Shown here: piece by piece, positions 1 through 42,700 of the stretch | Numbering within the stretch: position 1 is the stretch's first letter | Layout of the letters: every line of letters starts with the position of its first letter | Origin: Nageia nagi | Taxonomy: Eukaryota > Plantae > Pinophyta | Length of the DNA stretch: 64,000 bases | Assembly: GCA_050084985.1 (NCBI GenBank) | Contig: JBITNC010000001.1 | Location: 72,354,001-72,418,000 of the forward strand | Direction: 5' to 3' | Translations under genes and position numbers: made by a program | The notes under the pieces: generated by a model | Seen by the model: the letters and a program-made list of their open reading frames with translations, nothing else | Databases searched by the model: none | What the model was told of the DNA's origin: nothing

Positions 1-477
1 ACTTTTCCGTCAGTGAACTTCAAACCCATATCCGACCAAGTATCCTTTCTTTCTGCAAGGTGTTGTCCTTCACCTTTTACAGTATTGCCTTTACCCTTTC
101 TTTATGCTTTCATATCCAGATATGATCGTTAAGTACACACAAAAGTTCCAAACAAACTCTATACATTAAAGAATAAAACATCGTTGGTTAACAGACTACA
201 TACCTCTCATTCCATTCCATTGAGGTTGATTCCAAAGAGAGATACCACACTTTTTATTTATCTATCCCTATTCAGAAAACACACCTGGCAGACATACCTT
301 ACAACATCACAACATTGGGGTTGCTGGACAGGGTGTTTCAACAAAGAGCCCTGGAGGTACACAGTCCTTTTCAATCGAGGAATCGGTAACGCATTCCCAA
401 CTATGTTGCTTGGGATCTCCTAAGTTCTGTGTGCAATATTTAGAGTGTCCCACGTGGGAAAGAAAAGCATCCCAACA
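1..477 (+). mobile_element. 3' end of a TGTTG..CAACA giant element (copy E-1), inserted into copy E0
   Basis: Ends ...aaaagcatcccaaca at 477. It is the reverse complement of 24382-~24840, the 3' end of copy E3. Sequence after 477 switches abruptly to the reverse complement of E4's 3' region. Confidence 0.85.
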
Positions 478-8125: not shown

Positions 8126-8231
8126 GTTTGATAGAACAGAAATGTGAAAACCATAATATCATTTGGGAGGATATCTTATGATACTGATTGGACTTTTCAA
8201 TATTTTGGTTTCTTATGCTAGTTTCTTGTAG

Positions 8232-14236: not shown

Positions 14237-15799
14237 AAAGTATATAACTTAAAATTCTCTGCAAAATGAAAATAAATTACTTCCCCTAATATGTTGGCAT
14301 CACTACAAGACACCAGTTTCTGAAACTCATCATGTTTTCTATCAACAAGCTTGTTGGTATGTTTTTTTTTCCTCACCCAAAACATGCACAAGATTTGAGC
14401 AAACAACGTTACATGCTTTCGCTTGAAAGGACTAGTCACCCCAAGTGCTCACATGGAATATGATCTTGATGGCTCAGCAGTCAAAGATGCATGTTGTTAA
14501 CCATATACAAGGGAAATACACGCTGGAGATCCTTTCCACAAATGAGGAATGACTACAAATATGAACGAAAGCGAAGAAAAATCACAAATGCAAGGACAAA
14601 CAAGGGATGAATGCAAGGGAATGCGAGGAAAGGAAAAGAGTTATGAAGACATCACCAAGGATACAGTGTCTTGGTAGGTTATCTTTAGATTCATTAAGGT
14701 CGATGTACTCACTATCAAGCCGGGCAGCAAATAGCAAATATGCTCAAATCACTACCAGACGAGAGCAATGAGCTGTAGGGTCTTTGTGGAAGACTCAATG
14801 GAGGGATGTAAAAAGTGAAGGTGTGAGTGCAAAAACCTAATCGAATGAGATAAAGACAAGCTATAAGCCTTAGAATATATCCACTTGCGTGCAAACTATG
14901 CAAAGAAGAATCAAACTCTTTTACATGAATAATCAATATGCAGCTCAAAGAAAGAACCATTCAGATATGCATAATCCCACAAATGATATTCCTCACAATA
15001 TAACTTTATGATTTTATTCCTCTAGATAAACACATTCATAATGATTTTCAACAACGAAACATGCATAGAACCCCTTATGCAACAATCTTCTATGCAATGG
15101 AATTTGAATCTCATATTATGCAAAGGCTCAAAATGATTACACAAATAAACCAATAGCCTGAATCTTAAAAATGCAAGAACTCCAATATATGATGCTTTCA
15201 TTACATGCAAACGTCCAATGCAAAATTGTACCAAGATCATATGCATAAATTCCTCATGTCAAAAATCCCTCTTGTCAAAATCCCTTTCTAAATGGCTCGA
15301 ATGGGGTATAAATAGGCCACCAGAAGTGTTTCCCGAAAGGCATCAAATTGGATATGGTGTGCACACATGCAACACACATATCGATATAAAATCAAATTGT
15401 CATAGAAAACTATGCAAGTGGCACTTAAAGCTGACAAAATATAAATGCCATTGCCAAAATGTGTCTAATCTATATCTAATCATGCAACAGAGAATTAGAT
15501 ATGCAATAAATAGTTTGAAAAAGTTTGACATCTAAACCGACGGGAGCAAAACCTCATCCTTGCACCGATCAGGGCCATAAATGAGTTTGACAGATTTGAT
15601 CTGGCGGGAGCAAAACCTTGTCCCTACACTAGTCAAATCGAAGTAAAACAAAGTCTGACATAACAATATGCATTAAACAAAGAAAGGATACCGTACGTAA
15701 AGTCTGCGGGGGAATTAGACCTAGGCCAGATCTGATTTGATACAAGCGGAATTCCACTCCTCGCTGGTGAGATCGTAGGACTCAATAGTCTCCTCCAAG

Positions 15800-18700
15800 A
15801 ACGCCACAATCTTCTGCACACCTCTGAGGTCATGTCGATACTATTGCCATTCTATCGAAAGTATCCTTCAATTTTTGGACATAGCCTGCATTTGGTGTCT
15901 CCAGATGACCATCTGCCTCTCATGAATGATGGGATGTCTTGCCTTCAGCAAGTTGAGATCATCAAGTTCAAGGTGCTCATGAATTAGATTTTGGGCCTCT
16001 GCCAATACTGCCTCCTTCTTGACATTGTTATCCTCCCCATGAATCTTGAGTTGATAAAGATATTCACTCATTTGTTCCTCAACCTACTTTCTCAAGGGGA
16101 CTTGATTTTTAGGATTGCATTGCACTTTTCCAATGCGTGGTTTAACCAATCATGATGATAGGTGAACTTGTGGCAATAGACCAATTTCTTAGGGTTGTTG
16201 GCATAAATGTGTTGCAAATGGGAAACATTGGGAAGATAATTATCCAACGTGTTGAGGTGTGCTGAAATTTGTGTCTTGAGATCTTTGATTTCAACACCTT
16301 CAGCAAGGAGCTTGTAAATCTGTGAAGACAATCTCTCGATGGCCTCCATTACTTTGTTCTTAAGCTGCTGCTCCATTAGTTCCCATCCTTCATGGAAGGA
16401 AGTTTGCTTCTGTAGGTGCAAAGGGGTGGTGCTAATTTTCTGGAACTCCTTTATAATCTTCCTACTTGCCATGAGTTCCTTCTTCAACCTCTTCATCTCC
16501 TTTTTGGCTTCATAGCCTTCCTGTTCCATAACTGCAACATTCTAAGTAACAATGTGTTTCCTGGTTGTCAACCCTAGTTTCACTAGCATCTTGAAAGTCT
16601 CAATGACACAGTCCTCCGTTCTTTGAGGGTGCTTCTATTTCGAGTAGCAATGGCTGATGGAGATCTCCTTTCGAGAGGTGGAGACGAAAGTGTCCACCCT
16701 CCGAATCTTCTCTCCATATGAAAGTTCTTCCTCATCATTTCAAAATGTAGTCCTTGTCTTTGTCTTCATCATGAGCCGTACTCATGCCAAGGGCTTTAAG
16801 GCAAAGCATTCAGGTCAAGATCTCTATGTTTGGTTGCTGGCTGAGGGGGAAACCTTTGAACCAACAATCTTTCTTTATTAATCTTCTTGACCTCCTTCGC
16901 TAGGTGGTCTGAACTACGGCCATTTCCTTGCCTTGATGCTCTTCCTGCCTCCTCTTCTTTTTCTACTCCTTAGTCTCTCCTTTGTCTTCTTCATCTGCTC
17001 CATTACTGCCTATAGATAAGCTTTTGTTCCGGAGCTGGGGAGATCTCTCATGACTCCTCTTGGTAGAGGATTTATGCGAAGAAGGGACTTCTTCCTATGT
17101 TCGGCAAGAGAGGACTTGGATGCAACCACCTATCTAGTGCATTTCTTCTCAATTATCTGGACGTCATCATCATAGGTACCAATGTCCACTATCTCATCAT
17201 TCAGAATGGTTTCAATCTCGGTTTCATCAGGTTCTGAAGCACCTATAAGCTATGTTCCTCTTGCTTAGGCATATTGGCAACATTGTCAACATCATCTTCT
17301 TCTTCTTCTTCTCTTTCGCTATGGCTCTCCGATTCTTCTCCAGAATCTTCCACCATGCGGTCAGATCTTCCTCAGTTTCTTCATCGGAAGAAGAAGAGGA
17401 ACGTTTAGAGATAGAGCTAGAACTTGGTTGTAAAGGGGGAACTTTCTCTCGTGGATCAAGAGAATGGGTGGATTTGAAAGGAATTGCCTTGGTGGACGAA
17501 CCACTATCACAAGCTGCATTCACCACATCGTCCAGCACATCCGAAGGGAGAGCATGATATCAGCATCTCTGAGATCAACCTCTATTACTTTGCACTTGCT
17601 GGGACCTAGGATGGGCTACCTTGAGGCCTCTTGTCTTTTTTTTGCAGGAAGTAAGAGTGTCTTTCCTGGCGAGGACGTGGTGTAGTAGTAGCAGGAGACT
17701 TGATCCTTAGAGGGACCTCTTTAGATTTGGGCTTGGTAGTTCGAGGCCTTTGAGGAGGCTTTTCTGCTTGGAGGGGAGCTTTTTTCTTGTTCAAAAGAGC
17801 ATCTATGCATGCAATTTCCCCTTTATCATGCACATTTCTGTATTTCTCCTCATTTCCCAAAGGCTTGTGTGGAAACGCAATGGGCCTATGGAAAGCTGTC
17901 TCATAGAAATGTGCTATTATCCCCTTAGGATCATAGTTCTTAGCAGTATCTTCCTTGAAGAAGTTGTACTGCTGTAGCTCTTCCCTCATATGTGTTGCCT
18001 CCACCCACATCTGGCACACATATCTGGATATAGAAATAGGCATGTTTATAGTGGCATTTTTCTTCTTCCAGACCTTCTCCTTCAGGAACAAAAGTTGCCT
18101 GGCAAACTCCATGAGAATCATCCTGTCGTTGGCATATCTTGGCAGGAAGAGGGGTTGCTCTTCTGAGTCATAACCCTGATGTATGTAAAATCAACGTCCT
18201 GCAGAAAGAAATCTGCATGTACACTGATGGTTGAATAGCTGCATCAAAAATCCTCTTGACAACGGACTCCCCTTTGATATCTTTGTAGATATCATATTCT
18301 AGTAATCGATCCTCTCATAGAAGTACTGGAACTTGTTTTGGTACCATCACTTTTAGTATGCTCTCCACACAGGGATGTTCTTCTGCCCCAAGTATCTTTC
18401 GTCAGCAAACTCCTTGGATCTAGCTTTGCTATGCAACAATAGTACACAAGATACGAGTTCATATAGAATGTTTTTGACAAGCCGGAATAGGCCAACTAAT
18501 GGCACAGGGCATCACTGATTACCCTAGCCCATCGGATAGGTCTCCCGGAATTGATTGTTACAATGAAACTTGTGAACTCTCTCTTGTACTTAACATCATT
18601 TTCCTGACCAGTCACCCTCGACATAAGAGAGATCCAACTTTGCCACAATTGGCAAAAATTCTTCTCTTCATGCACTGATCAACCTCTGCCTTGAAGGTTT

Positions 18701-19240
18701 TGGTATTCTTCAAGAAGGTAGGGTCAAATGTAGTCCTTAGGCTGGGTTGTGGAGTCATGGAACTCCTCAAAATAAGCTAGTGTATAATCGTCCCCATACC
18801 TTTTCTAGCCAAATCTGCTTCAACTCCAGTAGGGGCAAAGTGCATGATCACACTGCCTTCTGTGTCCTGCAGGACCCTTTTGTCATACTCACACTTCTTG
18901 GCCAACTAACTGCACAAGTCAGGAAAAGGTATTGCAAATGGCATCATAGCGGCTTGAACAAATTGCATGCGTGGATAAGCTCCTTTGATAAGTCCTCTTT
19001 GCCGATGGAGGACGTGGAGGCTAGGGTTAGAATAGGGTCCAAGTTTCCCCAATCTGTATCACCAACGAAGATATATCTCCCCTTGAATTTGGCTTCAAGG
19101 AGCTCTTGCTTGTTTTTCCATTGAAATTCTATCAAACTTTCCTTCAGGATCTGGTCATCTAGCTTTTGGTCACATGCCTCTCGAACAACTGGCTTTGAAC
19201 CTTCTTGGCTTTAATGAAGGTGCTTGATGTTCGAAGCCAT
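15800..19240 (-). pseudogene. Family ORF of E1, decayed, ~1150 codons, function unknown
   Basis: Fragments IFVGDTDWGNLDP, FYMNSYLVYY, LPRYANDRMILMEFARQL, YDPKGIIAHFY and HKPLGNEEKYRN, then a Ser/Glu-rich linker and a coiled-coil-like C-terminus. TATAAATA on the minus strand at 19636-19643. End is approximate. Confidence 0.75.
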
Positions 19241-20159
19241 GTAGAAACATTACTTATCTCCTCCCCTTTTCAACTCCTGATGTTGACCAATTTGGGCGCA
19301 CAATTTTGGATGAGTGCAAAAGCACAACCTTAAAAGCATGGGATTGGGCCTAGGTCAATTAGTCAATCTCAGGACCCAATTCTTCACTCTAGATTTGGTT
19401 CGCATGGTTTTGAATGAGTGCTTTGGGCACAACTTTGAAAGTATGTGACTAGGTCTAGAGGCTAGACTGAAATGCCTTAGCCAAAAAGGCTAATTGGATA
19501 TACAACGTCCCCAAAACCTTCTTTCCTCCTTGGTCACACGTTTTGGAACGGATGCCTAAGTATGCATGAGAAATGGTGTGATTGGGAAAGGGCGTGATTT
19601 TGAAATGGATGATAGAAATGATCAAGGGGTGGGAGTATTTATAGATTCATGTATACGCCAGGTGCCACCTTTCAATTGATCCGTCTAGGGGTCAAATAGA
19701 GGGCCAAAAACAAGAGCGCATGTTTCTTGAAGGGTGCAAAAGGACGTGATGAAAATGAAGCGACTAGGTCTTTAAGCACTTAGCCAAATTCCAGACTAGA
19801 TTTGAAGTTTAACTCTTGGTTGCAACCTTTTGGAGGGGTGCTAAAAGCATGTGCCTCAATCCTTGTGCTAAGTCTTTAGCATGCTTCCCAATGCCTAAGA
19901 TCTCAAGAAAACTTCAAAAAATGCAAGTGGTCCTTGGTCATATGTCAGGAGGGAGTGCTTTCTCTTCTCTACTCCCACGCTTTGCCCAACAAGTTTGCAA
20001 ACAGAAAGAAGGGGCTGACTTCCCTTTTATAGCCCTCTGGATAGGATAGGTGTCACCATGGGATAGGCATGGAAGGAGGTCCAGTGCATGGGTTCCCACT
20101 TGTCAACCGACGAAATCCAACATTTAGCCAATTTTCCTTCCTTATTTTGGTTGCATGGT

Positions 20160-20770
20160 TCTGGACGAGTGCAAAAGGACTCCTAAAAACCTTGCGACAA
20201 GTCTTGAGCCCAAGAAAATGACTAAGTATCCTCCACCTCGGTCGCACCGTTTTAGACAAGTGCAAAATGACTCCACAAAAAGCATGCGACAACCTTAAAG
20301 CTCAAAAAAATGCTAAGTATGAAAGTTGCTCTGGTCGCATCGTTTTTGGTGAGTGCAAAAGGACTCACCCAAAAACATGCAACAACTCTGAAAAATACTA
20401 AGTATAGAAGTTGCCATCTTGGTCGCACCTTTTCCAAGGGGTGCAAAAGGACTCCAATGAAAACATGCAATGCTAAATGATGCAAAAAAATGCTAAGTGT
20501 GAGGTGTTCACCCCGTTCGCACCTTTTCTAGAGGGTGCTAAAGCACTCCCTCAAAAACATACAATAGGCTGAAAATAGTTTTTTCTTTTCATTTTTAACA
20601 AAAACAACACATGAAATGCAGATGGAATCTCTACAACATAGAGGCCTTTAGGATGCCTTCAACACACGAACATGCAAGTGATAAAAAATGGAGAAGGTTG
20701 GTTAGTCCCATAGTTTGAGAGGGGTGCTAAAGCACTCATTGAAACACATGCGACATGCTTGAAAATGCGT
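20160..20770. repeat. ~90-bp degenerate tandem array in E1, upstream of the ORF
   Basis: Units gtgcaaaaggactc...catgcgacaa...ctaagtat...ggtcgcacc at about 20169, 20260, 20353, 20441 and 20535, with an outlier at ~20724. Confidence 0.8.
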
Positions 20771-21874
20771 GTTTTGACTTCAGCTATCATGAAAATGCAA
20801 TTTAAACATGTTACGAAGACTAGACCGAAAGGTATGCATTCTCTTTGACAAATTTCTTTCATGCAATTCCCTCTTTGTTTCCTTTAGGGTTCTCAAAATG
20901 CAAAAAATTTTGGGGTGTTGTGCCTCATCCTCATCATGCCCAAAAGAAATAGTACATTGCTTTCATAAAAATCAGAATTCAACTAGTACCTTTGTGGAAT
21001 GTTTCCATGGCTGCCCAAGTTTTGAATTTATCTTCCTTTTCTCCCTACAACTGATCATAGCACCTTTACACATGAAATTTTCTGTTTTACCTTGCCCAAG
21101 TTGAGCAAAAGAACATATATGCTATTTGCAACTCATCATATTAGTCTCAACCCTTATTGCATCAAAAATCATGCAATGTACAGCCATATTTGTATAAATT
21201 GTAGCCATGCTAATTGTCATCAAAACAGTCCAAAGCATTTTGCAATGTAGAATACCAAGTATGAAGAAAGATCTACATGCCAATTAAACTCACCAATCAA
21301 ATCAGTTTTAGAAGTGTCTTCCAACTCCATCAATCTGAAAATGAAGTGATCATTTTCCCATTTGTAACTGTAACACATTCTCAAAATGAAATCAGAAATC
21401 ATCAAGAGAAAATTATGAACAAATGCATGCCAAGATTCTACAATAAGTGCAACCCATCTATCCCATTTGCCTTTTAAACCATACTCCAAATGTACACAAG
21501 TGTTCCAATCAAGTGTGGAATTAGTCCTTTTGCTGTTCCAAAACTTCATCAAATTTGCAACTGTAATCCTCTCAATTTTTGCAATCATGGTGCTTCTTTG
21601 TTGGCTGTTCCTGTTGTGCCTACACAACTCACCCCAAAATGTGGCAATTTTGGGGACCCTTTGCAACTTAGTATCGTCAAGCATCTAGCTGGAACCACCT
21701 CTCCTCACCTCCAATAGATTCGAAATCAAGCCGATCACCCACCCAGTCTCAATCATGCCATATTGAGTAGTCAAAACCCTCGAAAATGGCTAAGTATGGA
21801 GAGTTTAAGTCGAACTTGGGAAGTCCGAGTCATGAACAGACCAAGTACGCTGGATCAAGGCCACTCCCAAGTTT

Positions 21875-22838
21875 GTGCACATGCTCCAGAAAGACAAAAT
21901 CTTGCCTTTCTGGGATGTGCGCTCGGGCCAGGAGGGCATTTGGTTTCGAGTCAAGTCTGAAAACTCAAACTAGGTCACTCTTGGACCTAGCGCATGCCAT
22001 TTAAAAGACAAAATCCTGTCTTTCTAGGGCATGCACCAAGCTCAAGAAGACCTCCTAGATGAAATGAAGGCCACAAAGAGAGAAGTTAAAGCATATCAAG
22101 GTTGGCACATGCCTCCAAAAGACAACATCTTGTCTTTTTGGAGCACGTCGCCCAACTTGGAGACTACGAGGAAGGACTTGGTTCCTGGAAAGATGGAGTG
22201 CACTCACCCAAGGGGCTGGTGCATGCCTCAAAAAGACACAATCTTGTCTTTTAGAGCATGCGCCTAGCCCAGGAAGGTTCCAGGATGAGACAAAGTGAAA
22301 ATTTGGCTCAAGTATGAAGCCTTCGAAGTTCGGATCTCGCTCCAACATGACTAGAGGGGCTGGCGCATTCCTTAAAAGGAAAGATTCATGAATTTTGGGA
22401 GCATGTGCCAAGGTTGGCGAGACACCAGGATGGAGCAAGATTGAAAATTTGACAAAGTCTCGAGAGTAGGAGACCAAAACAAGATAAATCCAATCATCTG
22501 CAACCCAGCGCATGCCCCAAGAAGACAAGTTCATGACTTTCTGTACCATGCGCCCAGACTGCGGAAGCTGGAGAAGTTGGAGGGTGTTTCAAAAAGACAA
22601 AATCTTGTCTTTTCAAACCGTGCGCCAGGCTTTGGGGCATCCTTTCTAGTCAGTTGAGGAAAATGAACAAGTTGGACCCTAGGGAAGTGAGCATCAAGCA
22701 AGATCAAGTCTCAGGATGGATCTCCAAGGTCAAGTTGGATGAACAAGAGTGCAAGGAAGGCCAACGTGGGGAATACATCCACCCCCAAGGTTGGTGCATG
22801 CTCTAGAAAGACAAAATCCTGTCTTTTCTGAGCATAGG
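21875..22838 (+). repeat. Array of 8 palindromic ~50-bp repeats separated by dissimilar spacers (E2)
   Basis: Consensus ggcgcatgcctcaaaaagacaaaatcttgtcttttgggagcatgcgcc at about 21875, 21990, 22103, 22215, 22360, 22507, 22585 and 22790. Confidence 0.9.
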
Positions 22839-22992
22839 TTGGAAGACACCCTAAACCCCCCATGCTTGGTCTTGGTCGGCAGGAAGTGAAGTTTCATGAT
22901 GGCACACATCTCGAGGTCAGCCACTTGGATGGTTGGGATGTATTTTTCTCCATAACCTAGCCGACTAGGGTTTCAAGAAAGCCCACATCAGC

Positions 22993-23000
22993 TATAAATA
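22993..23000 (+). promoter_or_regulatory. TATA box upstream of the E2 ORF
   Basis: gcccacatcagcTATAAATA, identical in E5 (63403-63410), about 200 bp before the ATG. Confidence 0.6.
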
Positions 23001-24381
23001 CCAACTTGGGGACCTTATTTTCCCAAATTCAAATCACACTCTTCTACATTTGCGTCAAAATTGTAGAATTTTGAGTTTGAAATTTGCCTATTTGCTTGGG
23101 AAGGCTTGCGCAAGGGAACAAGGAGGGAGGTGTGGAGGTCACAGGCTTGCAGAAAAGCCAACACATCACCTTGAAAGGTCCTCGACACTTGCTAAAACAT
23201 CATGGCTAGTTCCCAAAGCAATTCGGCCAAGGATTGCGCGAGATCTGGAGTGCATCAGGCAAAGGTGTATCATCACTATATGCGAGCGAGGAGACTCCCT
23301 ATCCCAGGGGGCTAAGTTCTCCAAGAACAGGTTGTGCACTATCGGAGACACAGACTGGCAGAACGTGGATCCAATATAGATGAGAGAAAAGATCAAAAAC
23401 AAGCCATTTAGTGAGTTGAAACAGGATATTGTCTTCTTCTCTGGGCTCTCAAACTGTGCTTTTGTCCCATTCACAACCCATTCTAGAAGTTGGTCAACAT
23501 TGGAAGAAAGGTGAAAGGGTGCTCCGCGACATCAAGGGTGATGTCATCATGGACTTTGGCCTCGAAGGCATTAAGGCCGCATTTTTGTGGACTTCGGAGG
23601 GCAATTTTGAGTATATGGAGGAGCAATCGTTGGCATGATATCGAGACACCAATAGAGCAGCCGTAGCAATCAAGAGTTGGATGTTCGATGAGCACCATGG
23701 CTTGAAGGGTAACACGCTCATCAATGCCCCTTGCTCCCACTTCCATCTCTCCGTCGAATTAACGATCCTCATGTTGTCACGAGTTCTCGGGAAGGAGGAT
23801 GCGTCCAAGTTCTGGAAAGAGTTCTTTAGCTTCATCGTGGAGATAGCCAGGGGGAAGAAGATCAAATGGAGTAAGGTGTTGAGCGATAGCATCATGGACC
23901 AGCTATCATCAGTGGGAACCACACACAATTTTCACCTTAATTCTTACTTGATATACCTGTTGCTCCACAGCAAGCAAAGGCCTACTGCCTTAGGGGAGGC
24001 TGATTTGAACGAGAAGGGAACATATGCTATGTGGAAGTGCTACCCAAAGTGGAAGATCGAGAGGAGATGGGAGAATTTCGCAATGAACTATGATGGATGG
24101 GAATACGAAATCTACAAGGAGCTTAAAGGAGAGATCACTAATTACAGAATCTCCAAGTCATCTAGGATGCGTTGAGGAAACATGGAGACTTATTCGTCCA
24201 TCACCAACATTACTCCTACATTCGTCTCTACGGATCAACTGTGGAGCCATATTAACTACCTCGGTACGTGAGCAACAGGATGCTCCTGATGGAGATGATG
24301 AGGCAGTTGACCTACCTGCATGAGCATGTTTGGCAGAAGAAGTCAGTCACTTCCAATCTGCCAGTCATAGTAGGAGACAAT

Positions 24382-27300
24382 TGTTGGGATGCTTTTCTTT
24401 CATGTGCGGGACACTTTGAATATTGTGGGCGGAACTTAGGAGATCCCAAGCAACATAGTTTGGGAATGCGTGACCAATTCCCTTGGTTAAAAAGGATTGT
24501 GTACCTCCAAGGCTCTTGGCGAAACACCCTGCCCGACGAACCCAACGTCGTGACGTTGTAAGGTTTGTTCGCTTGGTGTGTTTTCTGAATAGGGATAGAT
24601 AAATAAAAAGGTGCGAAATCCCTCTTTGGAATCAGCCTCAATGGAATGGAATGAGAGGTTTGTAGTCTATTAACCAACAATGTTTTATTCTTTGATGTAT
24701 AGAGTTTGTTCGAAACTTTTGTGTGTGGATTTAACGATCAGATTTGGTATGAAAGCATAAAGCAAGCATAAAGAAAGCGTAAAGGCAATACTGTAAAAGT
24801 TGAAGGATGACACCTTGGAGAAAGAAGGGATACTGACGGGAAAGTGTCTAAGAGTTGATCTCTTTCGAATCGGTTAAAGACTCTTCATCCAATTCATCCA
24901 ACCTTACAAGCAAACGACTTAACGTTCGAATTGCTTCTGAAAGGAGCGGGAGGAACGTCAAATGGGTGGAAACGGAAGGTTTCAACATGAGTGGATCATG
25001 GTTTTGGATGAAAGACTTAAAAAGATGTCATAGAAGTAGAAATCTGACATAGAATACCCAATCAACTTGCGTGTTAAGGATTGAGCAACAAGCATAGGTA
25101 GGCTTCAAGCACTTTTAAAGTTTTTTAGAGATAACTTCCCTAAAGCTCATGAGTTTTCAAAGGAATAAAACAAAAGTACACAAACCCACTATGAGTGCCC
25201 TCAAAGAATCAATCAATAACACCAATGTGAAATGTTTGTAACTAAAGTCTTTGCTTTAACCACTTTGTATTAATTTGAAAAGAGTTGTGCAAGGATACAT
25301 CAATTTGCTACTCTCTTACAAAAGTTCTCTCTTCAAGTTTGAAGTGTTTTGCTTCAGAATGAAGTCCTTACAAAAATGAGACCCTTGGTCTCTTACTTGT
25401 AGATTTTGGAAATCCTAAAAATGACTTTTGAAACCCTATAAATGAGTTTCAAAACCCTAACCCTAATTGCAAATTAAAAGCTAATTACAAGCTGATTAAA
25501 AATGCTAAATAAAGATTACAATTGGACTTAGTGGAAATCCACTAACTTAGCCAAATATTTGGCTTACATATCAAAAACTTGCCACAATAGACCCCTTTCT
25601 ATTCTGGCAATTGTGGGAAGATAACTTGCTCGTTTGTGGTGATTTTGGTTTCAAAGTCATCTCCCATGAACGCTTCTACGTTCTTGATGGCATGGTGGAT
25701 TGTCCGGAGGGTTCCTTCATTTGATAGCAGGTTGTCTAGGATGGCCTTATTGGTTTTGACCATTTCTTTGCTCCAATCAGCCAATCTCATCCCTCCTATC
25801 ATCTGTTTTCTTATTTTCAGGTTGTGTGGATCCTCGGAACTATCTGCTCTATGACAGTGGCGTGGATCATTGTCATCACTGTCATATACTTCTTAATGTT
25901 GCTGTTTTCCTCAAACAAGGGTAGTTGGAATTCGTATTACCTTGCCTATTTACTGATGACAACTTTGAGCTGGGTTTTGGTGTATATGAAGTCGAAGGAC
26001 TTGGCTTTGATATAGAACAAGTAATTGTACAGTTGGAACCAATCTATGCAAAAATACAGTACGAAAGGATGATGGGTTGCCCTTCTCCGTAGGTCTAGCA
26101 TTGTAGACTACCCATTCTTCCATCTGATGGTTAATTGGTCTATTTTATCCGCCTGAGAATGTGACCCCTTCTCCTCAATATAAAAATTTACCATGCTTGA
26201 GTGGAGTGCTTTAATGGCCTCAATAAGGTTCTTGGTCCATCCTTGTTTCAGGGCATTGATTCCAGTATTTAAGTCAACCTGCTTTTCGATGTCTTGAATT
26301 GTCAAATTAGCATCCCAGACTTCGTTATCAAGCATTTCCTACCTCATCACTATCTTTTTCAGCTTCCGGTTCTCTAACTTTAATAACGTACCGGATTCCC
26401 TCAATGCCTGTGCATTTGTGATGATGTTGTGCTTCATTCCCAATGGGCTAACAATCTTTGTAGAGGCCTCTTCTCTCTCGATGGTGAGGGCAAACTTTCC
26501 GGTACTAGTTTTGTTTTTCCTTGAGTAAAGCTTGTCCTTGTAGGTGACTTTTTCTTATAGCGGTGATAAAAGTATCAATCTGCTGAAGTTCCTCATTTTC
26601 ATCTTTGGAATCTTCTCCTTCGCGAGGATGATTTGAACTCAAACTGGCCATCACTGCAGCCATGTCAAAGCGGGGTTCCTAAGGTTGTTTTTCGTAGGAA
26701 ACCATCTCTCCGTCTTTGATGATTTCGATGTCATGCTCTACTTGTTTTCTTTTTCTCCTCTGTCCTTCATTTTCTCCCTCATCCTCCTGATTTCCATCAT
26801 CTCCCCTGAAGATGATGCCATGGTCCTGGGTCTTGAAGTAACCTTCTGAGCTTATGTTGTTGTGGTCCTCCAAGATGGTGTGTTTGCGATGCCAGTTTTT
26901 GAGGAGCGGAATTTGGAGTATTTGTTCCTGTTGCTTGTACAATTATATCGACTGAGGGATTGCCTTCGTTAAGGATCTCTACTGAATGATCAGTGGTGAC
27001 CCGCTTAAAGGCAGTATATTTGTTTATCTCCATTTTGGTGTTGATGATTGCTACAAAATCCATCTCTTCATTGGTCTCTGATGAGTCACTTGGTCCATAT
27101 TTATCGGAATTGGATGATGATGTGCAGGGGTTTTGATTCAGGCGCATACCATTCCGATTCAAACCTTGCGGGAGATTTATCTTTTTTTGCAAGTGTTTGA
27201 ATGGTTGAGTGATCAGGCCTGCTCTTCTGAGGTCTAGGATTTCATTCCTCATACTCGTGATAGTTATTTCAATGGTTTGTCTGGGGATGCTATTGGTAGC

Positions 27301-30300
27301 ATACTGCCCATTCTGTCCTTGAGCCAGGGTTACCGAAGGGGATATTATGAGAATAACATACTTGTGGCTCGGGGGTACAATGATCCGTGCATTGGCTCTT
27401 AACCCGGTAGCTTCTTCGGCTTCATGCTGTTTTTGTTCTTTTTTCAGCTCCTTGTGAATTCGTTGAACGTGCAAGGTGTCTTGAATGTTCCTGTACCTCT
27501 CGATGCTACCAAGGGACTGGTGTGGGTATGATGAGCTCCAAGTCTTCTACAAGAATGCATCAATCATTGCATCGGGATCATAGTAATCTGTCAGCTACTT
27601 CTATCAGGAATTCATACAACTCCAGTGCTTGTTTGATCACTTCAATTTGTCGCTAGGTGGTGCATTCATAATTCCTGATGACAATAGGTGATTGGTAAGT
27701 GGTCGCCGCTTTCTTTACCTATATCTTGTCATGTACATTTAGCATCTTGGAAATTCCACAAGGATGATATGATCACTTGGATAATGGGTAGCCTGTAAGG
27801 GGCTTCGTTGGAGCCATAGACCCTGAGGTAGGTGACTTCTATGTCTTCGGCAAAGAAGTCCGCATGTCCCTTGATAGCGGTAGCAACCTCTTTGGATATT
27901 CTGTATATGTTGGCTCTGCCTAGGATTTCTTCGTAAATTTTGCCTTCAAAACGATCGGTTCATCATCGTCTAGTTTCTAGTATTCCATTTATTATGGCAT
28001 AAAAACCGAGGGTAATTTTCCCACACTAGATGTGTAGGGTTGTACGTATACTGGGTATTGTCAATTGAAGTTACCCTTTCCCTACCATGAGGGAGTAGGA
28101 AAACTAGGTAGGATTTCATATAGAATTTCTTGCTCCTCTAAATGTGTTTCAGTTGCTGAGCCAAGGAATCACTAATTACTTTGCTCCACCTAACACCTTT
28201 ACCACTACTGATTAGCTCTATAAACCCCGCAAATTCCGGCCAAAATTTGCTATCATCTTTCTGTTGTCACTTGGAAAGCATGGATATTAGTCTAGGAGAC
28301 TACTGGATAGAACTCTCCTTTATTTGGCGTTGCTAAGGCTCTCCTGTGAGATGCTTGCGGTCATTGGCCAACCAATGTCTGATCAAATAAACTGTAGGTT
28401 TCAAACCCTTGTAGAACTTCAAGGAGTCTTGCATGCTGTATGATAAGCCTTCACCTTTCCATGTGAATGCCCTTTCTATTCCTTCCTTAGAGAAGTCCAT
28501 GATTACCTCGTTTCTTCTATTAGGAGTCTCCGCTTTCAGATGTCGCAATGCTTTCCTAGCTTCGTAACATAGCTCAGGGAAGGGGGTTTCAAATGGCACC
28601 ATAGAAGCTGATAGTAATAAGGAAGTTTTCAAGGTGTCCTTCACTATCGAAAGTTGGATCCAATGTATGTATTTTCATTAGAGTTTTAATTGGATTGAGG
28701 GAGTTACAATTGTATCTCCGATCTCACTCATTGGTCAATGATTCTTGCGATGGGCATCACGGACTCTGACGTATGTTCAAGACTGATAAGACTGTCCATC
28801 GTGAGCCTTTTTTGCTTTCTGTCTTTGATATTCTAGCAACTAACGCCATCTTGTCCGGTCTAAGAGAACAACACAGTGTTAGAGGAGTCTTGGGAAGCTT
28901 GTGGCACTTTCAAGGCAAGCTAAGAGAATTTTTCAAAAATTGGATTTTGGGCATTTTTTTCTCTTGTGTGCCATCATCAAAAAATATCAAGGTTTGCAAT
29001 TTTCAAAGCCTTTGGGTGAGTTTAAGGTGACACAAAGGGAGCTGCCTCAAAGGGTAATGCCTTGGCAAAAATCTTGGATGATTGGAGAATTTTCAAGTTT
29101 TTCTCAAAAAAAGTTGACTTTTTCAATAGGAAAAAGTGGTGAAATTGTGCAAAATTGGCAAATGGTGCCGGAATCAAGTTCTAACAACTTGGATGGGGAA
29201 GGAATGGGGAAGGTGTTTCAAACTTTGAAACGGACTTCAGAAACAATTTTTGGAGTTTTCTGAAATTGTTTTGGATTTTTTTCAAGAAATGAGGATATTA
29301 AGCACTCAGATCTTGGATCTTATGAATTTTTTTGTTTTTTTAGCTGAAAATAAAAGTTGATCACATGGATAAAGGGTATCCAAAAAAGTGATCAAATTTG
29401 AAATTTGGAAAAAAAATAAATTTTCAAGTGTTTGAAGGTTTGAAAAATGAGTTTTTGTGAAAAAAATCCTCAAAACTTGGAGAAAATGGAGTTCATGTGG
29501 ATGGAGGATGCTTGGACTTCGAATTTGAATGGAGTTTGTGGAAGTGGCAAGATACTAAGTGTTTGAAAAATCCTCCAAGGTTGGAAAAATGTCTTCTTTT
29601 CTCACTTGGCGCTCAAATCTCAAAAATTTGGGCAGCATAAAGGTGCAAAAATGAGAGTGAGCAAAAAGGAGGGGGTATGCTTATATGTATAGGTCTAGGG
29701 GTGTCAAAAGTGCCACATGTCACTTCCTATCAACCTTGGAGTTTAACACTTGCACTTTGGACTATTCTCTCTCAAACCCAACATTGGAAATCATGAGAAA
29801 ACTTGGAAAAAAGTCAAAAGCTGCGCCTAGATGGGAAAGGAGCAGATTTGGTGCAATGGGGGAGGTCTTGGAAGCAAAATGATGGCCTTGGAATGCTCTA
29901 CAACCTCCATGCTTCAGATTTGGGTTTTGAATTTTGAGATTTTTGAAGGAAAATCCAAATTTTTTGAGTTTTCTCAGCCCTTAGATCCTTTTTGGATGCA
30001 AAAAGTGGTTTTTAGGAGTTTGTGTGAACCAAATTGCACAAATGATAGATCAAAATGGTGTAGAATCACACCATCTACCTTATAGAAATGAAAAATTGCA
30101 ATTTTGGGCCTTTTAGGGTTCAAGGGGGCTATGTGCAGTTTTAGGATGTTTTAGGCAAGTTTTGAAAAATGAAAAAAATGGGGGATAACTTGCAAAACCA
30201 CGCCTACCTTTTAGGGGGGGAAATTAGTTTTTGAGCAAATTTGCAAGAGGCAAAGATGCTTGCATTTGGATTTTGAACCCAACCTTTCTTTCCAATTTTG

Positions 30301-32321
30301 TTTTTGGGATTTTTGAAATTTCTTGGAAAATTTTGGAGCTCTCCTGATTGGCCGATCCAAATTTTGGGATTTTGAGAGAGTTGATCAACTTTTTTCGAAA
30401 AACTTAAAACATGAAAGAGATGCAAAGTTGGATTTCCCATACTCCTAGGATCAAAATTTTTGATTTTTGAGGAAACATGAGGGCTTGCAAGCTAGGGTAG
30501 GTTTAAGGGGCTTTGACATGTTTTTTGGAAATTTAGAAGATGGGGGAAACAAGCCAAAACTGACCGCCTAGCTTTTTGATGGGGTAAACTTGATTTTTTT
30601 GCAACATTGCAAGAGGAAATGTTGATCTCCTTTGAATTTTGCACCCTACATCACTTTTCTTTTTTTATTTAACCATTTTGGAAAATTTTGAGCCCTCTCA
30701 TTGGTCAATCGAAATTTGATGATTTGAGGAGGTAGATTTCATTTTCTTAGGAAAGTCAAATCATGAAACTTGTGTGGAATCCCATCTTATACCCTTGAAG
30801 GTCAAATTTTCAATTTTTTTCAAATTTGGGGCACAAGAAGGGTAGGCGCAGGTTTTAGGATGTTTGGGGTGTTTTGAAGATTTTAAAAAATGAGGAAAAC
30901 ACCTAAAACTAGCGCCTAGCTCTAGGAGGGTCAAAATTTGCTCAATTTCAAAAATTCCAGGAGGAAAGGTGCCTAATTTTTGATTTTCCACCCTACTTCA
31001 TTCTTAAATTTACATTTTTGACACTTTTGGGAATATTGGAAATCTTGGAGCATTTTCATTGGCTGCCTTTTTGCTCATTTTCCCATTTTTCTCATTTTCG
31101 ATGGAGCAAAACTCATCCAAATCGCGAACTTGAAAGACCAATTTGATGTAGAATTGTGATCCCCACGCTCCTGAGATCAAAAATTGCTATTTCGGATCAA
31201 TCTGGGCCTCCCAAAAGGTAGGCGCAGGTTTTGAGGGGAATAGGCTATTTTTTGAAATTTACTAAGTGAGGGAAAACTTGCAAAAGTCCCCCCTAACTTT
31301 TCGGAGGTCAAAAATCAATTTTTTTTGAAATTTCCAAGAGTAGAGTGGCCTTAATTTGTCATTTGGCACCACATCTCTCTCTCGGATTTTAATTCTGAGC
31401 ACTTTGGAAAAAACTCTATTTTCGGCTCAAATCGAAGCTTTTCAGAGGCCAAAACGCTCATTTCTTCATCTTGGCCCACAAGGGTGCTCAAACTTGTTTT
31501 CCTTATTCATTCCTGGCTATACTGTATATTCCTTACCTTCTTCGTCTTTTGCATTTCCGGCATTTTCGGGCTCTAAGTATGAATTTCGACCATTTTTGGC
31601 TTTTTCGAACATTTCCTATCTCGAACGGTGAAAAAAGGTTATTTTCAGCAGTTTCGGTATTTCAAGCTCAAAGTCTTTATTTTGGCCTTTCCAAACTCAA
31701 GATATGCAAAAAGCCTCATTTCTTGCCTTTCCGGGCATTTTCAAGCATTATGAGCTGAAACTTGCATTTTTGGTCATTTTCGAGTTTTTCGGGTTCAAAT
31801 CGTGCAAAAACGCACATTTTCAGCATAGTGACCACTTCCAAGCTCAAAATTGACCAAAATGCGCTTTTCCATGCTATTGACCATTTTCTGGCTCCCCGTG
31901 CTCAAAATTGACAAAAACATGCATTTTTGTCATCTTAACTGTATCCACTGCTTTTAGGCTCAAACTCGATGAAAAATGCACCTTTTGTCGTCTTGGCGCC
32001 TTTGTTGCTCAACTTTTCCAAAATGACACTTTTTTTGCCTTGATGGCCATTCGCTCAAAACTCCACTGTTTGGTTGCTGTCGCAATCCAAAACTTCGTCC
32101 TCTAAGATACTGCTCGAGACTAAGCCCTGACTTGGCCACTGGTTGAGTTGAATTGTTTCCATGACTTCGAGGCATGCTCGTGCATTGTTTGATCAATTCG
32201 CCATTTTGTGTATCCATATCGGTCATAAGTTGATCATGCCTAGACAATGTTGCTCATTGCTGTTTGAAAAAATTAGATCCTCAAAATGTTGCTACTTGGA
32301 GTGTGTTATGTGGGTGCAACA
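24382..32321 (-). mobile_element. Giant TG..CA element, copy E3 (7.9 kb), nested in the ORF of E2
   Basis: Minus strand starts tgttgcacccacataacacactccaag and ends aaaagcatcccaaca. TSD acaat/agaac (3 of 5 match), and excision restores the host reading frame exactly. Confidence 0.85.
25599..28849 (-). pseudogene. Family ORF of E3, decayed, ~1080 codons
   Basis: SMVPFETPFPELCYEA, VIMDFSKEGIERAFTW, HVQRIHKEL, KYVILIISP and WTKNLIEAIK; colinear with the E4 ORF. Confidence 0.8.
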
Positions 32322-35031
32322 AGAACCAGTGTAGAGTTGGGGCGGACCTGGCTTCCATGATAGATGAGTTGGGAAGGTACAAATTCGAGAAGATGCTGAC
32401 TGTTAATCACTATGACCCTGAGCACCGAATCCATGGCTTCTATATGGAGAGGAAGAGAGCCTATGAGCATAGGCCACTTAGAGATGAGGAGCCGTTTTGA
32501 AATGTCAGCATTGAAGTGGAAGTGAATTCGTGCCAAGATGCAAGAGGAGGCTCAGAAGCAACAATGGGAAGTAGAAGCATCAATTCATAAGAAGTTGTCC
32601 TGATCTCGGGGAAGGAGACCACAAGAATCTACCTCTAGGGTCACCCAGTTTCCACTAACGATTGAGGAACCCATTGGGCAAAATGCGTCCATGCATGGGA
32701 AGGTTCCCGTTGAGCAGGTAGCACAATAGGTAAGGAAGACATTTGATGAACATGATGTGAGGGAATTGGAGCATGTGGCCACCAACAAGGAACTGAGATG
32801 TGCGAGAAACCAGAGACCCGATTCGTCTCCACCCAAAGGCCAGCGAGGACAATAGTGTCACGTCCGTCTTAGACCATTCCATGATGAGGGTCAAAGTCCT
32901 CAAGCGATTTATATGAAGACCATGGCACTCCTCATGAAGAACAAGAAGATGGACAGCGAGATGATGATCGACAGAGTATGCTTGAAGAGGGGGAGTATGA
33001 GAGCATTCCGAAAGATGAGTTAGATGAAGGGCCAGGAGATGAGCATGCAGCTAGTACTATTCTTGAAAGAGACATACCGGATGCATAGGGTGAGGAAGAA
33101 CCGTCATTGGAGATCTTGAAGGAAGTCCATAACCACGCGACTTCAGTACCTTCAACATCTGAAAGGAAAGACCAAGATCCTACCTCGAAGTCAATACCAA
33201 GAAGAGCCCAACTGAAGAGAGGGTCTCAGTCCAGATTGTCAACAACACTCGAGGAGATTGCGGGGCAGAATGAAAGATCTTTTAAGAAGATCCAAGCAAC
33301 ACCGTCACCATCACCGAAGCAGTGGGGTGTAGACATGGACGAGTGCCTCAATGTCTTCAACATGGACATGGGGGATTGATAATTTGACAACTTAATAGAA
33401 ACTTTGCTGTGCCGAATTTCTCTTAAGTGTTAAAAGTGGTGTATGTGGATGCTATTGTGATTATGTACTTGTTCATGTTGGAATAGTGGATGTGAATGAA
33501 TGTTAGATAGTGCTATCTATGTTTATTCTATCATTGCTTGATATTAGTTCAATTGACTTGGTGCATCTCCTAAACTTCATTGAGGTCTATGAGAGCTTGC
33601 TTGCTTATCTTAAGAAGTAGTTGATTGGTATCTCGTGGATGATCTTTCACTATTTGCAGTATTTGGTTGGTAGTCTTGGGATGTCTCACTAACATTGTTC
33701 GTTGTCGGAACTTCATCCCGTTCCTTTTGTCTTACCTCGATCCCATCCTATCTCATTGCCCTAGCTTCACGCTCCATCTACTCAGCTATTCGTGTTGTTG
33801 GCTGGTGGATTGGATAGTGGGTGCCTAGAACCTGCATTGAACCCAAGTGAGTTGGCTTCCAAGAGTCTTTACCAATCCCGTGAGCTTGTATGCCCACTCT
33901 CACATCCTGTCCCTACAGTCTTTCCACCATCTTTTCTTTCTTTATTTTCTTTTATTTTACACTCTCTTTTCGCAATTTTCCCACCCCCAATTTTCCCTTT
34001 TCAGCATTCAAGAAACAACCTTGATAAAGCCCAGACGCAAAACTCAAAGTCCCTTGAATTCACACATGATATTGATGTTGGTGGCAGCTCTAAACATCTC
34101 AACCGTCTCCTGGGTTATCCTTACATAGTCCACGAAGCCAACCTTTGCGGTAACTACTCCCCATAGCGGGAGGGAGTAATGTCCCTCTACCTGAGGTGTT
34201 GGCGTTTCTCCCACTACTTTCGGGTAGGAAAGAAAAACACCCCAACTGTTCCAACTGTCTAAAAGGCTGAAAATATCATGTGAACATGTATGATGGCAAA
34301 TGTACCAATTGTCCTCATTTTCTTTTGCAATTTTTCTGATTTTTAAATCAGATTTATTGGCTACAAAAAAGTTGGAATTTTGCACCATTCTATCCACATA
34401 TAAGACTTCAAAAGTCCACTCCAAATACCAAAACTGAATCAGCAATTTGTAAATCCATCAAAGCCACAAAAAGAAGTGAAAAGATGCCACGTATGGCTAT
34501 GAAAAAGTATCTCCTTTTGCAATGTTCCATGTGAGAAGTGTTCTACACCACCTACCATGCATCCACATGAGAAAAATCAACATTTTATTTGAAGGAACCA
34601 TGGCTGTAGTAATTTTACCTTTACATAGCAGAATATATGAAATGTCAAGTGATTGTCCTCCTCCCATGAGATGAGTATGAAACATGTACCATGGCTGAAT
34701 ATGCTTGTGCTTCTCTCCTCCAAAAGAACTCTTACCATATATGAAAAGAATTCTTGGATCCCATGCATTTAAAGGTTGATCACAATTCTCAAGTGCAATT
34801 GATCTTTCCCTCACAAAACTCTTCACACAAGGAAAGCTAAGGCCATTATGATCACAATTATTTAAGGGCTTAATTTGGAGTTCTAACCCATATCTCTCCA
34901 AACTTTCACAAACTGAAAATTCTTCAACACCCATTTGTATCTTTCCCATAAAGTATGCAAAAAACAAATCTGAAACATTCTCTAACTCTTTTCCCAAATC
35001 ATGAGCATCATGTTTCTCATTGAATTCATTC

Positions 35032-39799: not shown

Positions 39800-42700
39800 T
39801 ATTGTTCCCGCATAACACACCCCCAAAAATACAAGATTTTGGGTACCGAATTTTTGCAAATATGGGAATCCAAGTTATACCAAGTTCATGAAATGAACTA
39901 GCTAGGATGACTTGAGGGTTGATTCTTAGCAGTCTTAAGGGATGATATAATGGAATGGTACATGGCGGTTATCTGCTGGGATTCCTTGGGAGATTCAAAG
40001 TATTCAGTCAACAGTTTCTTTGAGACCACGACTAGTTCAGGATGATCAAGTGATGAAGATATACACGTAGTGAGAAATGTAAAGTGTGGATTCATTGTGA
40101 ATTCAAAGTTTGGGGACAAAGGTTGTAGACAATTCAAAATGAGACACATTTAAGCTTGGAACCTCTCAGTTTGGATCAAAGATGCTCCCTAGAGGACTAA
40201 GTGAAGAATTTGGGGTCTTAATGCCTTCAAGAGGAATGGAGTTGTGCTTACATTGAAAAGACAGTTTCTCATACAAGTTTGATGGAAAATGTGTAGATAC
40301 CCTCAAGAGAAGCTTGGGAAAAGAATAACATTCAAACTTGTAACTTTTCAATTTCCTCCAAAGTTGCTCATTCCCTCTCCGGGGGCAGTTTTTTGTGGTT
40401 TACTCATTCAAAGAGAGAAAACATGTGCCTAGCAAGACCATGCACACAAGAAATCTCAAAATTGCAAGTTGACCGATCAAAATTGTGGCATGTGGGTATG
40501 GTTGGAAGTCATGAAATGAGCATTTTTGCTCTTGAGAATTTCGAAAATACATTAAAATCACCTCATGGAGACATAGGTGCAGATTTTAGGAGTTTAACCC
40601 CCCTAAAAAGAAATAATGTGCGCCTAGATTGTTTGTGCACTTGTTTTTGAGGTTTACCAAATTGAAAAACTAAAACTTGGGTGTTGTAGAGCTAGGGAAA
40701 TCATGCAATTTTGGTCAAGCAAGCACATAAGAATGGTCAAAATTGTGCCCAAGAAGACTAGGTGCACATTTTCTAGTTTATCTCATTTCAAGCAAAGGAA
40801 AAACTTGCACCTTACAAAAGATGGGTCAAATCTTTGTCAAGATTGCAAATTGAAGGCATGATGAGGTGCACAATCCAATTCCATACGAGATTGATCTTGG
40901 AATCATTCAAAAGACCAAGTTTAACCCCTCCAAATCATGGCGCACATTTCTAGGCTATAGGGGTGGTAATGCTTTGAATTTCATGAGTTTTGTGGAATTA
41001 ACATCACATTTCTAGGCTATAAGGTTGTTAATTCCACACGAGATTGATCTTGGAATCATTCAAAACCCCTCCAAATTTGAAGCACTCCATCTCTAGCAAC
41101 CATGAGTTTTGCTTGGAAATGATGATAAATGTGCCCAAGTTTCAAAATATCCCAAAGTTTGCTTTTGAAAGACCTCCCCCTTTGAGTTGCTAATGCTTCC
41201 ACTGCTTCAATTTTCCTCAAAAATGCTTAAAACTTCACAATACTGACATCCTTGATGGCACACTTGGAATTAATTCTTAAAAATTCCAAAATTCTAGAAA
41301 ATTTCTTTTTTTCCTAGAAAGTTCACAAAAGCTTCACAAAGACCCTCTAATGGTATGTTATTCATATGATAGGGTTACTATGACATTTGTCGTTAGGAAT
41401 ATCAAAGAGAGGAAACAAGCGAGACTAAAGATGAAAAGCCCCATTGAGTTTGAGAAGATGGCGAAACTCTACAAGCTATTGCAAAATTTCAAGATCACTT
41501 AAGTGAGATTGGAGACATTCAGTTCTCCAACATTGATCCGGTGCAACATTGATGAAGATTCAATTGATGAACCAAGTTCACTATCTCAAGACAGTTTGCA
41601 ACAATCTCTTTTGGTGGAACCATCAATGATACCATATGCCTCCCCTCTTCCAAGACTTTGTTATGAAGTGGGTCAATATTGCAACTACGCCACAAGAATC
41701 CTTTTTGATAGAGGTGGCAACAAAATTATGGACTTCACATAAGCAAATATTGGAAACGCTTTCGCTTGGACAAGTGAAGGCATATCATACAAAGTACAAG
41801 AATATTTGAAATTCTATAAAGATTTGAAGCCTCCAAGTGACTTAATCAAATATTGGCTGGCAGATGATTGCAAAAACCTCATGGGAAAAGCCTTGACTTA
41901 GCCTAAGAGGGGATATTTGTATCACACAGTGTCAAAGATCATAAGTATGCTATCAAGGGTGATTGGACAAAAGGATGAGTCGATGTTTTGACTAGAGTTC
42001 GTAGGATTCATTGATCAAATCAGTTAGGGCAAGGGCATACATTGGAGTAAAGTCATTAGTGCTTGCTTGGCTTCAAAATTAACCAACGTTAGGGTAGACA
42101 AGAAGTTCTATATGAACTCTTACTTGGTGTTCTTACTCATTGATGGTAAAGAAAGAAGAACCACCATTGCCAATACTAAATTCTTGTATGATCCTCTACA
42201 TCCTATTGGGAAAGCTACCAATGATTTTTGGTGCAAAATAGATGGATTGAAGACAACTTGAAGATGATGAATGGAAGCTTTGAGTGCCGAATTTATGATG
42301 AGATCAAAGGCATAAGGAAGATGTTCAAGATATTAGATCAAGCTATCGCAGCTCTCAAGGGAAATGTAGACTTTTACTTGCAGGACCCAAACCTCACTTA
42401 CATCAGGGTATATGGTTCGAAGGAAGCTTCGTGGAAGCGACCCCATTTTGCCAGTGATCGACTCATCCTCGTGGAATTCTCAAGGCACTTGGTGAATGTA
42501 CATGATAAGGTATTGGCTAAGAAGGCTTCTTCTACATATCAATTATTGATTATCATGAGAGGATATGAATGTACGGGTTGGTATCAAATTCCATTGATGA
42601 GACGCAAATTAGTACTTAATCATTTTGAAACGAAAGTGGTAGCAAATCAATATGATCCAAATGGGATGATTGATGCCTTTTCCAGAAAAACTTGGCAGTC

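Follow-up and report, generated by a model that had tools for sequence, protein, structure and literature searches.

How do plant repeats come to carry, beside a long reading frame, inverted motif pairs whose sequence and spacing vary among subfamilies, and what reads these pairs? The window (the whole stretch of DNA analysed, 64,000 nucleotides) contains six related plant repeats of 4.7 to 7.9 kb, E0 to E5, which are likely solo LTRs of one retrotransposon superfamily. We propose, with a probability of roughly 0.4, that the palindromic units near the 5' end of these likely solo LTRs form a U3 enhancer, composed of two-fold symmetric sites for dimeric host transcription factors. The elements and their parts are as follows.

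24382..32321, minus strand: E3, 7.9 kb, likely solo LTR with internal ORF; conserved ends, flanks matching at three of five bases
29780..31300, minus strand: E3 array with five units of 350-375 bp, of which four are clear and one is decayed, each with a palindromic core
30843-30918: best inverted pair of E3
25602..28850 (ends approximate), minus strand: E3 ORF, ~1,000 codons, with stops and frameshifts
24382..25590, minus strand: part of E3 behind the ORF, likely comprising the LTR promoter, R and U5
21612..34247, plus strand: E2, ~4.7 kb of its own sequence plus the inserted E3; perfect 5-bp target duplication
21868..22845, plus strand: E2 array, 8 palindromic ~50 bp units of class G3; TATA box next at 22993
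23190..24381, plus strand: 5' part of the E2 ORF, resuming at ~32322-33380
39800..45388, plus strand: E4, 5.6 kb, perfect 5-bp target duplication; array ~40380-40816 (class G1), broken ORF ~41380-44290, TATA box 44409
477..4173, minus strand: E0, gene-less, class G1; array ~1600-2590
14352..20936, minus strand: E1, 6.6 kb, without target duplication; array ~19290-20760 with nine full units of class G2, TATA box at 19643, broken ORF ~19240-15750
62011..64000, plus strand: E5, 5' part only, extending beyond the window; array ~62290-63250 (8 G3 units), TATA box 63403, ORF start ~63620
1..477, plus strand: 3' end of another copy resembling E3, sitting in E0; 84% identical to the E3 end

The retroelement context assumed in the initial annotation is borne out by the ends of these repeats. 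Alignments of nine 5' ends and nine 3' ends revealed conserved TG...CA termini, with single-base decay at three of the aligned ends and a degenerate 5' end in E1, and among the four complete copies 5-bp target duplications are perfect in E2 and E4, partial in E3 and lacking in E1. The E3 terminus at 24382 recurs as a sharp end with unlike flanks in 40 contigs from 4 runs, and one contig of run X2 joins both flanks of E2 without E2. E3 is inserted into the E2 ORF, which picks up again past E3 and whose C-terminus is deleted; E0 is interrupted twice, by another repeat at ~2667-3500 and by the family member ending at 477. Nesting of family members within one another was frequent. The post-ORF part of E3 shows 84% identity to the further copy L004 and is kin to E4, E0 and the fragment 1-477. 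Self-comparison revealed no internal LTR pair in E2 to E4, and no full-length element was found among the copies L001 to L006. A primer-binding-site-like sequence starting with TGG, which may correspond to tRNA-Asn, lies 5 bases past the gene-less copy L006. This distance falls within the 0-5 base rule described in the cited source (PMC6317226). No other of the nine aligned 3' ends has a primer site, and the E3-type junction contigs share no common one. Altogether, the L006 sequence, the conserved ends and the target duplications point to likely solo LTRs whose U3 holds the array; as gag-pol was attached to no copy examined, we infer the lineage and the LTR status of the gene-bearing copies. 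A short 1.2-kb LTR, beginning at the purine run that follows the E3 and L004 ORFs, was rejected since E4 has no such run and the target duplications enclose the whole unit.

The inverted pairs of E3, E0 and E4 lie where the initial annotation had placed them, and the motif-pair units of E1, E2 and E5 are likewise present. All are the outer arms of palindromic units of ~45-75 bp, arranged in tandem in E0 to E5; the 350-375 bp units of E3 have a mutual similarity of 58-70%. Unit profiles detect one another inside three classes, namely, G1 (E0, E3, E4 and L005), G2 (E1), and G3 (E2, E5, L001-L003, the L004 insert and the L006 LTR), with weak links between G2 and G3 (E 0.04-0.13) and weaker ones between G1 and G3 (E 0.4-0.7). 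The proposed grammar shared without visible alignment holds for a short core common to the subfamilies, but the pairs belong to whole units that align within subfamilies, and E0 units align to E3 units above all 30 shuffles. The proposed subfamily-specific spacing holds for E0 (CG-to-CG distance of 57-58 bp) and E3 (67-68 bp), whereas the distances in G3 (41-43 bp) and in E1 and E4 (44-46 bp) place three of the five spacing classes within 41-46 bp, these values excluding eight out-of-register pairings (43, 44, 55, 59, 60, 60 and 71, plus 51 in E1). One pairing of 62 was also obtained in E4. In E1 units, conserved blocks are separated by spacers that are variable and unpaired but constant in length. 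A unit-profile scan found units only in the 5' array, and gene-less LTRs, which are nested in two clades, retain their arrays.

Enrichment of the motif over background was confirmed for part of the arrays. The half-site matrix was trained without the tested group and compared with 200 dinucleotide shuffles per array, a friendly test since the training sites were chosen by eye from the initially annotated motif; at the lower threshold, half-sites were enriched in 7 of 10 arrays (at most 2/200 shuffles reaching the count), the exceptions being E3 (76/200), L005 (129/200) and the L004 insert (13/200). Inverted pairs, with a count of 0 in the 32,053 bp of the window that served as background, were enriched in four of the ten arrays (E0, E1, E5 and L001), marginal in E4 (10/200) and not enriched in E3 (41/200), and none were detected in the four remaining arrays.

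The initial annotation missed that the array and the ORF likely lie inside one LTR. In five of the six elements (all except E0), a decayed ~1,000-codon ORF is located between the array and R/U5, directly behind the array as previously suggested, and dN/dS values of 0.09-0.26 indicate past purifying selection, 8 of the 17 pairs being saturated or misframed and without value. An exact TATA box separates array and ORF in E1, E2, E5 and L001. Together with L003, whose box is a near match, this makes five of the seven gene-bearing copies in the scan; E3 and E4 have no exact match ahead of the ORF. The protein combines a globular N-terminal half, an acidic low-complexity middle and a helical C-terminus; an env-like membrane protein was rejected, given that only one window was hydrophobic, with a borderline value of 1.79 (residue 875). 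Pfam gave no match for the ORF pieces, including any transposase or integrase domain, nor for 28 of the 424 relatives found by profile search, one of which has 1,010 residues; a word search yielded no relative of 824-2350 residues. Searches of PDB sequences and scans of viral contigs and prokaryote genomes with the protein gave no match. DNA-pattern scans returned 0, 0, 1 and 1 matches, the two hits (L007 and L008) being dropped as chance matches in phage contigs. Since both structure models were poor (pLDDT 43 and 47), fold searches are uninformative either way, and the best VIA match obtained with such a low-confidence query was an unrelated helical protein (Z 5.1, rmsd 5.9, 117 aligned). 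One Atlas query gave weak leads to PF20167 and PF03078, at 0.81, and a second gave no usable match.

We propose a model in which the palindromic unit would have arisen once and would then have been duplicated and respaced in each subfamily. In gene-less LTRs, the array would drive the element promoter 0.3-0.5 kb downstream, and in gene-bearing LTRs the TATA box of the accessory ORF. This ORF would have entered U3 before the split of the three clades and been lost at least twice, while recombination between LTRs would have left solo copies that later decayed under methylation.

An ORF directly behind the array and under selection fits self-regulation equally well as a host-factor enhancer. By analogy with VANC on VANDAL arrays, the LTR-borne protein might bind the palindromes in dimeric or oligomeric form and activate or de-silence its own LTR and gene-less relatives, a possible if somewhat unlikely arrangement. 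Besides the selection on the ORF and the weak Atlas leads, it is favored by the outline of the protein, resembling VANC and an Athila protein, both predicted to multimerise via coiled coils (PMC13547354), and by a description of VANC as structurally like the plant mobile domain (PMD) and of the MAIL2 motif as palindromic (10.1101/2024.09.27.615353). Moreover, the inner sites differ symmetrically between subfamilies (columns 28/40), and spacings of 44-46, 57-58 and 67-68 bp step by about one helical turn, albeit in few classes and with G3 outside the series. The second Atlas query lends it no help, and no Pfam, PDB-sequence or fold match was obtained, a result of little weight given the poor models. 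It is weakened by CpG, which is no better retained in arrays (observed/expected 0.11-0.41) than in the corresponding ORFs of these six copies (0.32-0.55), the core CG of the units being often decayed. In addition, VANC sites are reported also from introns and intergenic parts (PMC5735166), in contrast to units confined here to the 5' array. The motifs differ between families as in a VANC-like system, and neutral divergence predicts this too. In the tree comparison suggested by the initial annotation, the motif classes match the clades of the ORF and of R/U5; however, both array and ORF belong to one inherited unit, so that this agreement is expected from linkage and cannot show the proposed co-evolution. 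A self-activating cassette, in which a ~1,000-residue VANC/PMD-like protein would bind subfamily-specific arrays upstream of its own promoter and solo LTRs would be complete regulators acting in trans on gene-less relatives, appears unlikely.

The palindromes could instead matter as RNA or single-stranded DNA hairpins, involved in replication, packaging or as a small-RNA source, or be by-products of template switching rather than protein-read DNA sites, which we consider quite unlikely. Eleven of 13 units, preselected as inverted repeats, surpass almost all of their shuffled versions in folding (z between -2.6 and -8.4), pairing and covariation in G3 score slightly above shuffles (4/500 and 5/500), and Sirevirus palindromes are described as forming hairpins and siRNA hotspots (PMC4728375). 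Nevertheless, convincing hairpin covariation was absent from the E1 and G3 units: two-sided pair changes are at chance in G3 (340/500), E1 lies below its own shuffles, and a covariation excess as small as this can arise from related sequences without structure. Mismatches conserved at fixed positions in E1 and L006 units also speak against a paired stem. As for the gene-bearing copies, each might move as one unit whose ends look like those of a retroelement, or might derive from a full element by deletion. With no primer site behind any gene-bearing copy, no full-length element seen and frequent nesting among family members, this deserves mention, but it is improbable: their termini share homology with the ends of L006, the copy that has the primer site and that matches the gene-bearing L003 at 75% identity in the part behind the array; the ORF carries no transposase or integrase domain; and to produce the identical layout in three deep clades, double deletions would have had to occur repeatedly.

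The role of extra ORFs and tandem arrays in plant retrotransposons is presented as an open question in the cited accounts (PMC7264820, PMC11963269). In each of the three deep subfamilies described here, one likely LTR combines an ORF that was under selection with a palindrome class of its own, and the gene-less relatives retaining the array make it straightforward to compare binding across subfamilies. Pipelines that seek ORFs in the interval between two LTRs would miss a gene in a plant LTR, and such a gene would survive the formation of solo LTRs. If host factors alone bind, as in our preferred reading, the arrays would be an ordinary Sirevirus-like enhancer, and the layout would be the remaining novelty.

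Among retroviruses, MMTV sag and foamy virus tas/bel are genes in or overlapping U3, and foamy virus Tas activates its own promoters. As in these, a coding region is carried in the LTR, but they are animal retroviruses with much shorter ORFs. The VANDAL/VANC system also joins an accessory protein to short motifs, amplified in tandem, that vary from one related family to another; VANC, from Mutator DNA transposons, is described as binding 8-9 bp motifs across non-coding parts, with both binding and demethylation demonstrated (PMC5735166). In contrast, our motifs are candidate binding sites in the form of inverted pairs with a CG core, in elements unlike Mutator-like DNA transposons in their 5-bp duplication, LTR-like ends and lack of a transposase domain. 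The PMD modules MAIN, MAIL1 and MAIL2 similarly tie a transposon-related domain to a palindromic promoter motif opposing silencing (10.1101/2024.09.27.615353), but those described are host genes, and PF10536 was not matched here. OTA Gypsy elements (Athila, TatII, Ogre and Retand) share the 5-bp target duplication, very long LTRs and family-specific tandem arrays near an accessory ORF (PMC6317226, PMC7264820, PMC11963269); as in Athila and TatII, the ORF here is in sense orientation and located towards the 3' end of the genomic RNA, and our weak Atlas leads point to Athila ORF-1. However, these descriptions place the extra ORFs in the internal region, with LTRs of up to ~5 kb, whereas here the ORF lies within an end-to-end unit of up to 7.9 kb, with no pol for placement. 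The direct precedent for palindromic U3 arrays, overlooked in the initial annotation, is the LTR of Sireviruses (Ty1/copia SIRE), described as carrying arrays of a few palindromic units in its cis-regulatory part, their structure being kept while the sequence varies among families and loci (PMC4728375). Nothing marks our elements as SIRE, and unlike in Sireviruses a ~1,000-codon ORF stands between array and R/U5; with palindromic U3 arrays already known, it is the large gene within a plant LTR that is the unusual part.

The inverted GGCGCA...TGCGCC motif pairs quoted by the initial annotation were found where it had placed them, and they form the arms of tandemly repeated palindromic units near the 5' end of each element of a family with six members in the window (E0 to E5). 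Unit profiles define three classes, G1 to G3, as follows:

E0, 477..4173 (-), gene-less: 2 full units plus partial ones, G1
E1, 14352..20936 (-): 9 full units, G2
E2, 21612..34247 (+): 8 units, G3
E3, 24382..32321 (-): 4 clear units, G1
E4, 39800..45388 (+): 2 full units plus partial ones, G1
E5, 62011..64000 (+), running off the window end: 8 units, G3

Among six related loci from a metagenome scan (L001 to L006), L005 belongs to G1, and L001 to L003, an insert in L004 and the putative LTR of L006 belong to G3. When training sets excluded the tested group, 7 of 10 arrays showed enrichment of half-sites and 4 of 10 enrichment of inverted pairs, against 0 pairs in a background of 32,053 bp; E3, the locus of the original finding, showed no enrichment in this cross-group test. 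Links between classes were weak in the unit-profile comparison, which limits the grammar said to be shared across subfamilies to a short half-site that contains CG and occurs in inverted pairs. Half-site spacing, with out-of-register pairings set aside, is 41-43 in G3, 44-46 in E1 and E4, 57-58 in E0 and 67-68 in E3. A short hairpin immediately inside the 5' end (21630-21665 in E2) is kept in 9 of 9 5' ends; it shows a weak match to the interior of the G3 unit and may be the source of the array unit. Upstream of its palindrome array, E3 carries a second, degenerate array unlike the first (31550-31980, period ~58-88 bp), in a region of higher CpG o/e (0.76 for 31310-32320).

The elements share one order: a conserved TG-starting end with the short hairpin, the array, a TATA box, the ORF (a decayed frame of ~1,000 codons), a second promoter-like region and a conserved CA end. 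Target duplications of 5 bp are perfect in E2 and E4 and match at 3 of 5 bases in E3; none was found at the ends of E1. The E2 ORF is interrupted by E3, the E2 flanks are joined without E2 in one contig, and 40 contigs from four DNA runs stop where E3 ends, their flanks differing from one another. E2 and E3 are matched by thousands of contigs in each of four DNA runs, and their families are thus abundant. L006 contains a gene-less copy of 3.95 kb that shares these ends and has a G3 array, and 5 bases past its 3' end lies a 17-base sequence starting TGG, which fits the primer-site rule of PMC6317226. This sequence is putatively complementary to tRNA-Asn, which serves certain Athila and TatII elements as primer. 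Altogether, the conserved ends, the target duplications and the L006 sequence suggest that the elements are likely LTRs, with the copies in the window as solo LTRs and the arrays as repeats of U3; we consider it very probable that the element ends are LTR ends and, a step lower, probable that the ORF lies inside the LTR. The weak point is that the primer-site-like sequence is present at 1 of 9 3' ends, that of a gene-less copy and of no gene-bearing one, and that gag-pol was not seen with any gene-bearing copy; that the elements are not LTRs is nevertheless a quite improbable reading. Self-comparison detected no internal LTR pair in any element.

Family members are frequently nested, perhaps because they are abundant or because insertion is targeted: E3 lies within the E2 ORF, E0 contains a copy, and E3-like as well as E1-like copies contain inserts; in junction contigs, one E3-type end falls inside a G3 unit. 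In E3 and L004, the ORF stop is closely followed by a purine-rich run and then by a TG-starting stretch that resembles the element's own end; this may mark where an older, shorter LTR once began.

Window 24382 and 477; L004 1687; L006 4270 and 15004: nesting sites
Window about 25585-25605 (-); L004 4755-4776: purine-rich run and TG stretch, absent from E4

In L003 the ORF occupies a single frame, 971 codons long and interrupted by 3 stops. Its dN/dS was 0.09-0.26 across 8 N-terminal pairs and 0.40 for one middle-region pair, 8 of the 17 pairs tried giving no value. A profile search with an E limit of 0.001 returned 424 relatives, including one unbroken 1,010-residue protein; no ORF piece, and none of the 28 relatives scanned out of these 424, passed the Pfam cut-off. 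One Atlas query gave leads at 0.81 to PF20167 and Athila ORF-1, and another gave none. Fold searches with two structure models (pLDDT 43 and 47) returned no informative match; the predicted arrangement of helices and a hairpin in the second resembles the PMD/DUF1985 layout, as a lead only. Gene-less copies are nested in G1 (E0) and in G3 (the L006 LTR and the L004 insert), hence the ancestral LTR likely carried the ORF, which would later have been lost at least twice while the arrays stayed.

We favor, at a probability of about 0.42, the reading of the palindrome array as a U3 enhancer recognized by host factors. Its close rival, a tentative one, is that the ORF protein binds its own array as VANC does. 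ORF clades, post-ORF clades and unit classes do agree (G1 and G3 are supported and G2 rows lack resolution in the ORF tree; long branches meet in the post-ORF tree), but such agreement is expected for linked sequences and is no evidence of co-evolution. It appears unlikely that the palindromes are hairpins or a by-product: 11 of 13 units fold as hairpins, as must any units picked for being inverted repeats, and 33 G3 units show marginal covariation at best, 9 E1 units none. The E1 units consist of conserved blocks, and the spacers between these are unpaired and variable but constant in length, a pattern that suits putative double-stranded binding sites. CpG retention is no greater in arrays than in ORFs, which is what one would expect of old methylated copies.

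The window is plant DNA, and its repeats likely lie in introns of a gamma-tubulin complex component gene (exons 7484-8318), the exons sitting among long repeat-filled stretches; this layout suggests a gymnosperm host. Other features are:

7484-7756 and 8235-8318: gamma-tubulin complex protein exons, weak domain matches (E 5e-4 and 5e-5)
12066-12862, 36310-37105, 37142-37932 and 2667-3500: unrelated ~800 bp LTR family, 87-93% alike, orientation and duplications read by eye
9100-12086 (-): decayed Gypsy gag-protease-RT region, protease matching RVP_2
4269-4356 and 5221-5309: short repeat pair, 88% identical, tRNA-derived (SINE-like) by eye
13151-14248 (-): 365-codon open frame without Pfam match, inside the element that the 800 bp LTRs flank

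The ~800 bp copy at 36310 has primer-site-like sequence alongside, and E1, E2 and E3 fall between this copy and that at 12066.

The literature searched, in which subscription papers are sparsely covered, yielded a single foamy virus paper and no plant case of an ORF inside an LTR, and the portions available of PMC12859917 (a meeting report) and PMC13477047 (on a conifer genome) show none. As far as the accessible parts of the following sources go, tandem motifs are bound by VANC (PMC5735166), whose structure is related to that of PMD (PMC13547354, 10.1101/2024.09.27.615353). OTA elements, whose LTRs reach about 5 kb, often have additional ORFs and tandem arrays, described in their internal region, whereas the window ORF likely lies within the LTR (PMC6317226, PMC7264820, PMC11963269). 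Sirevirus LTRs carry palindrome arrays in their cis-region (PMC4728375).
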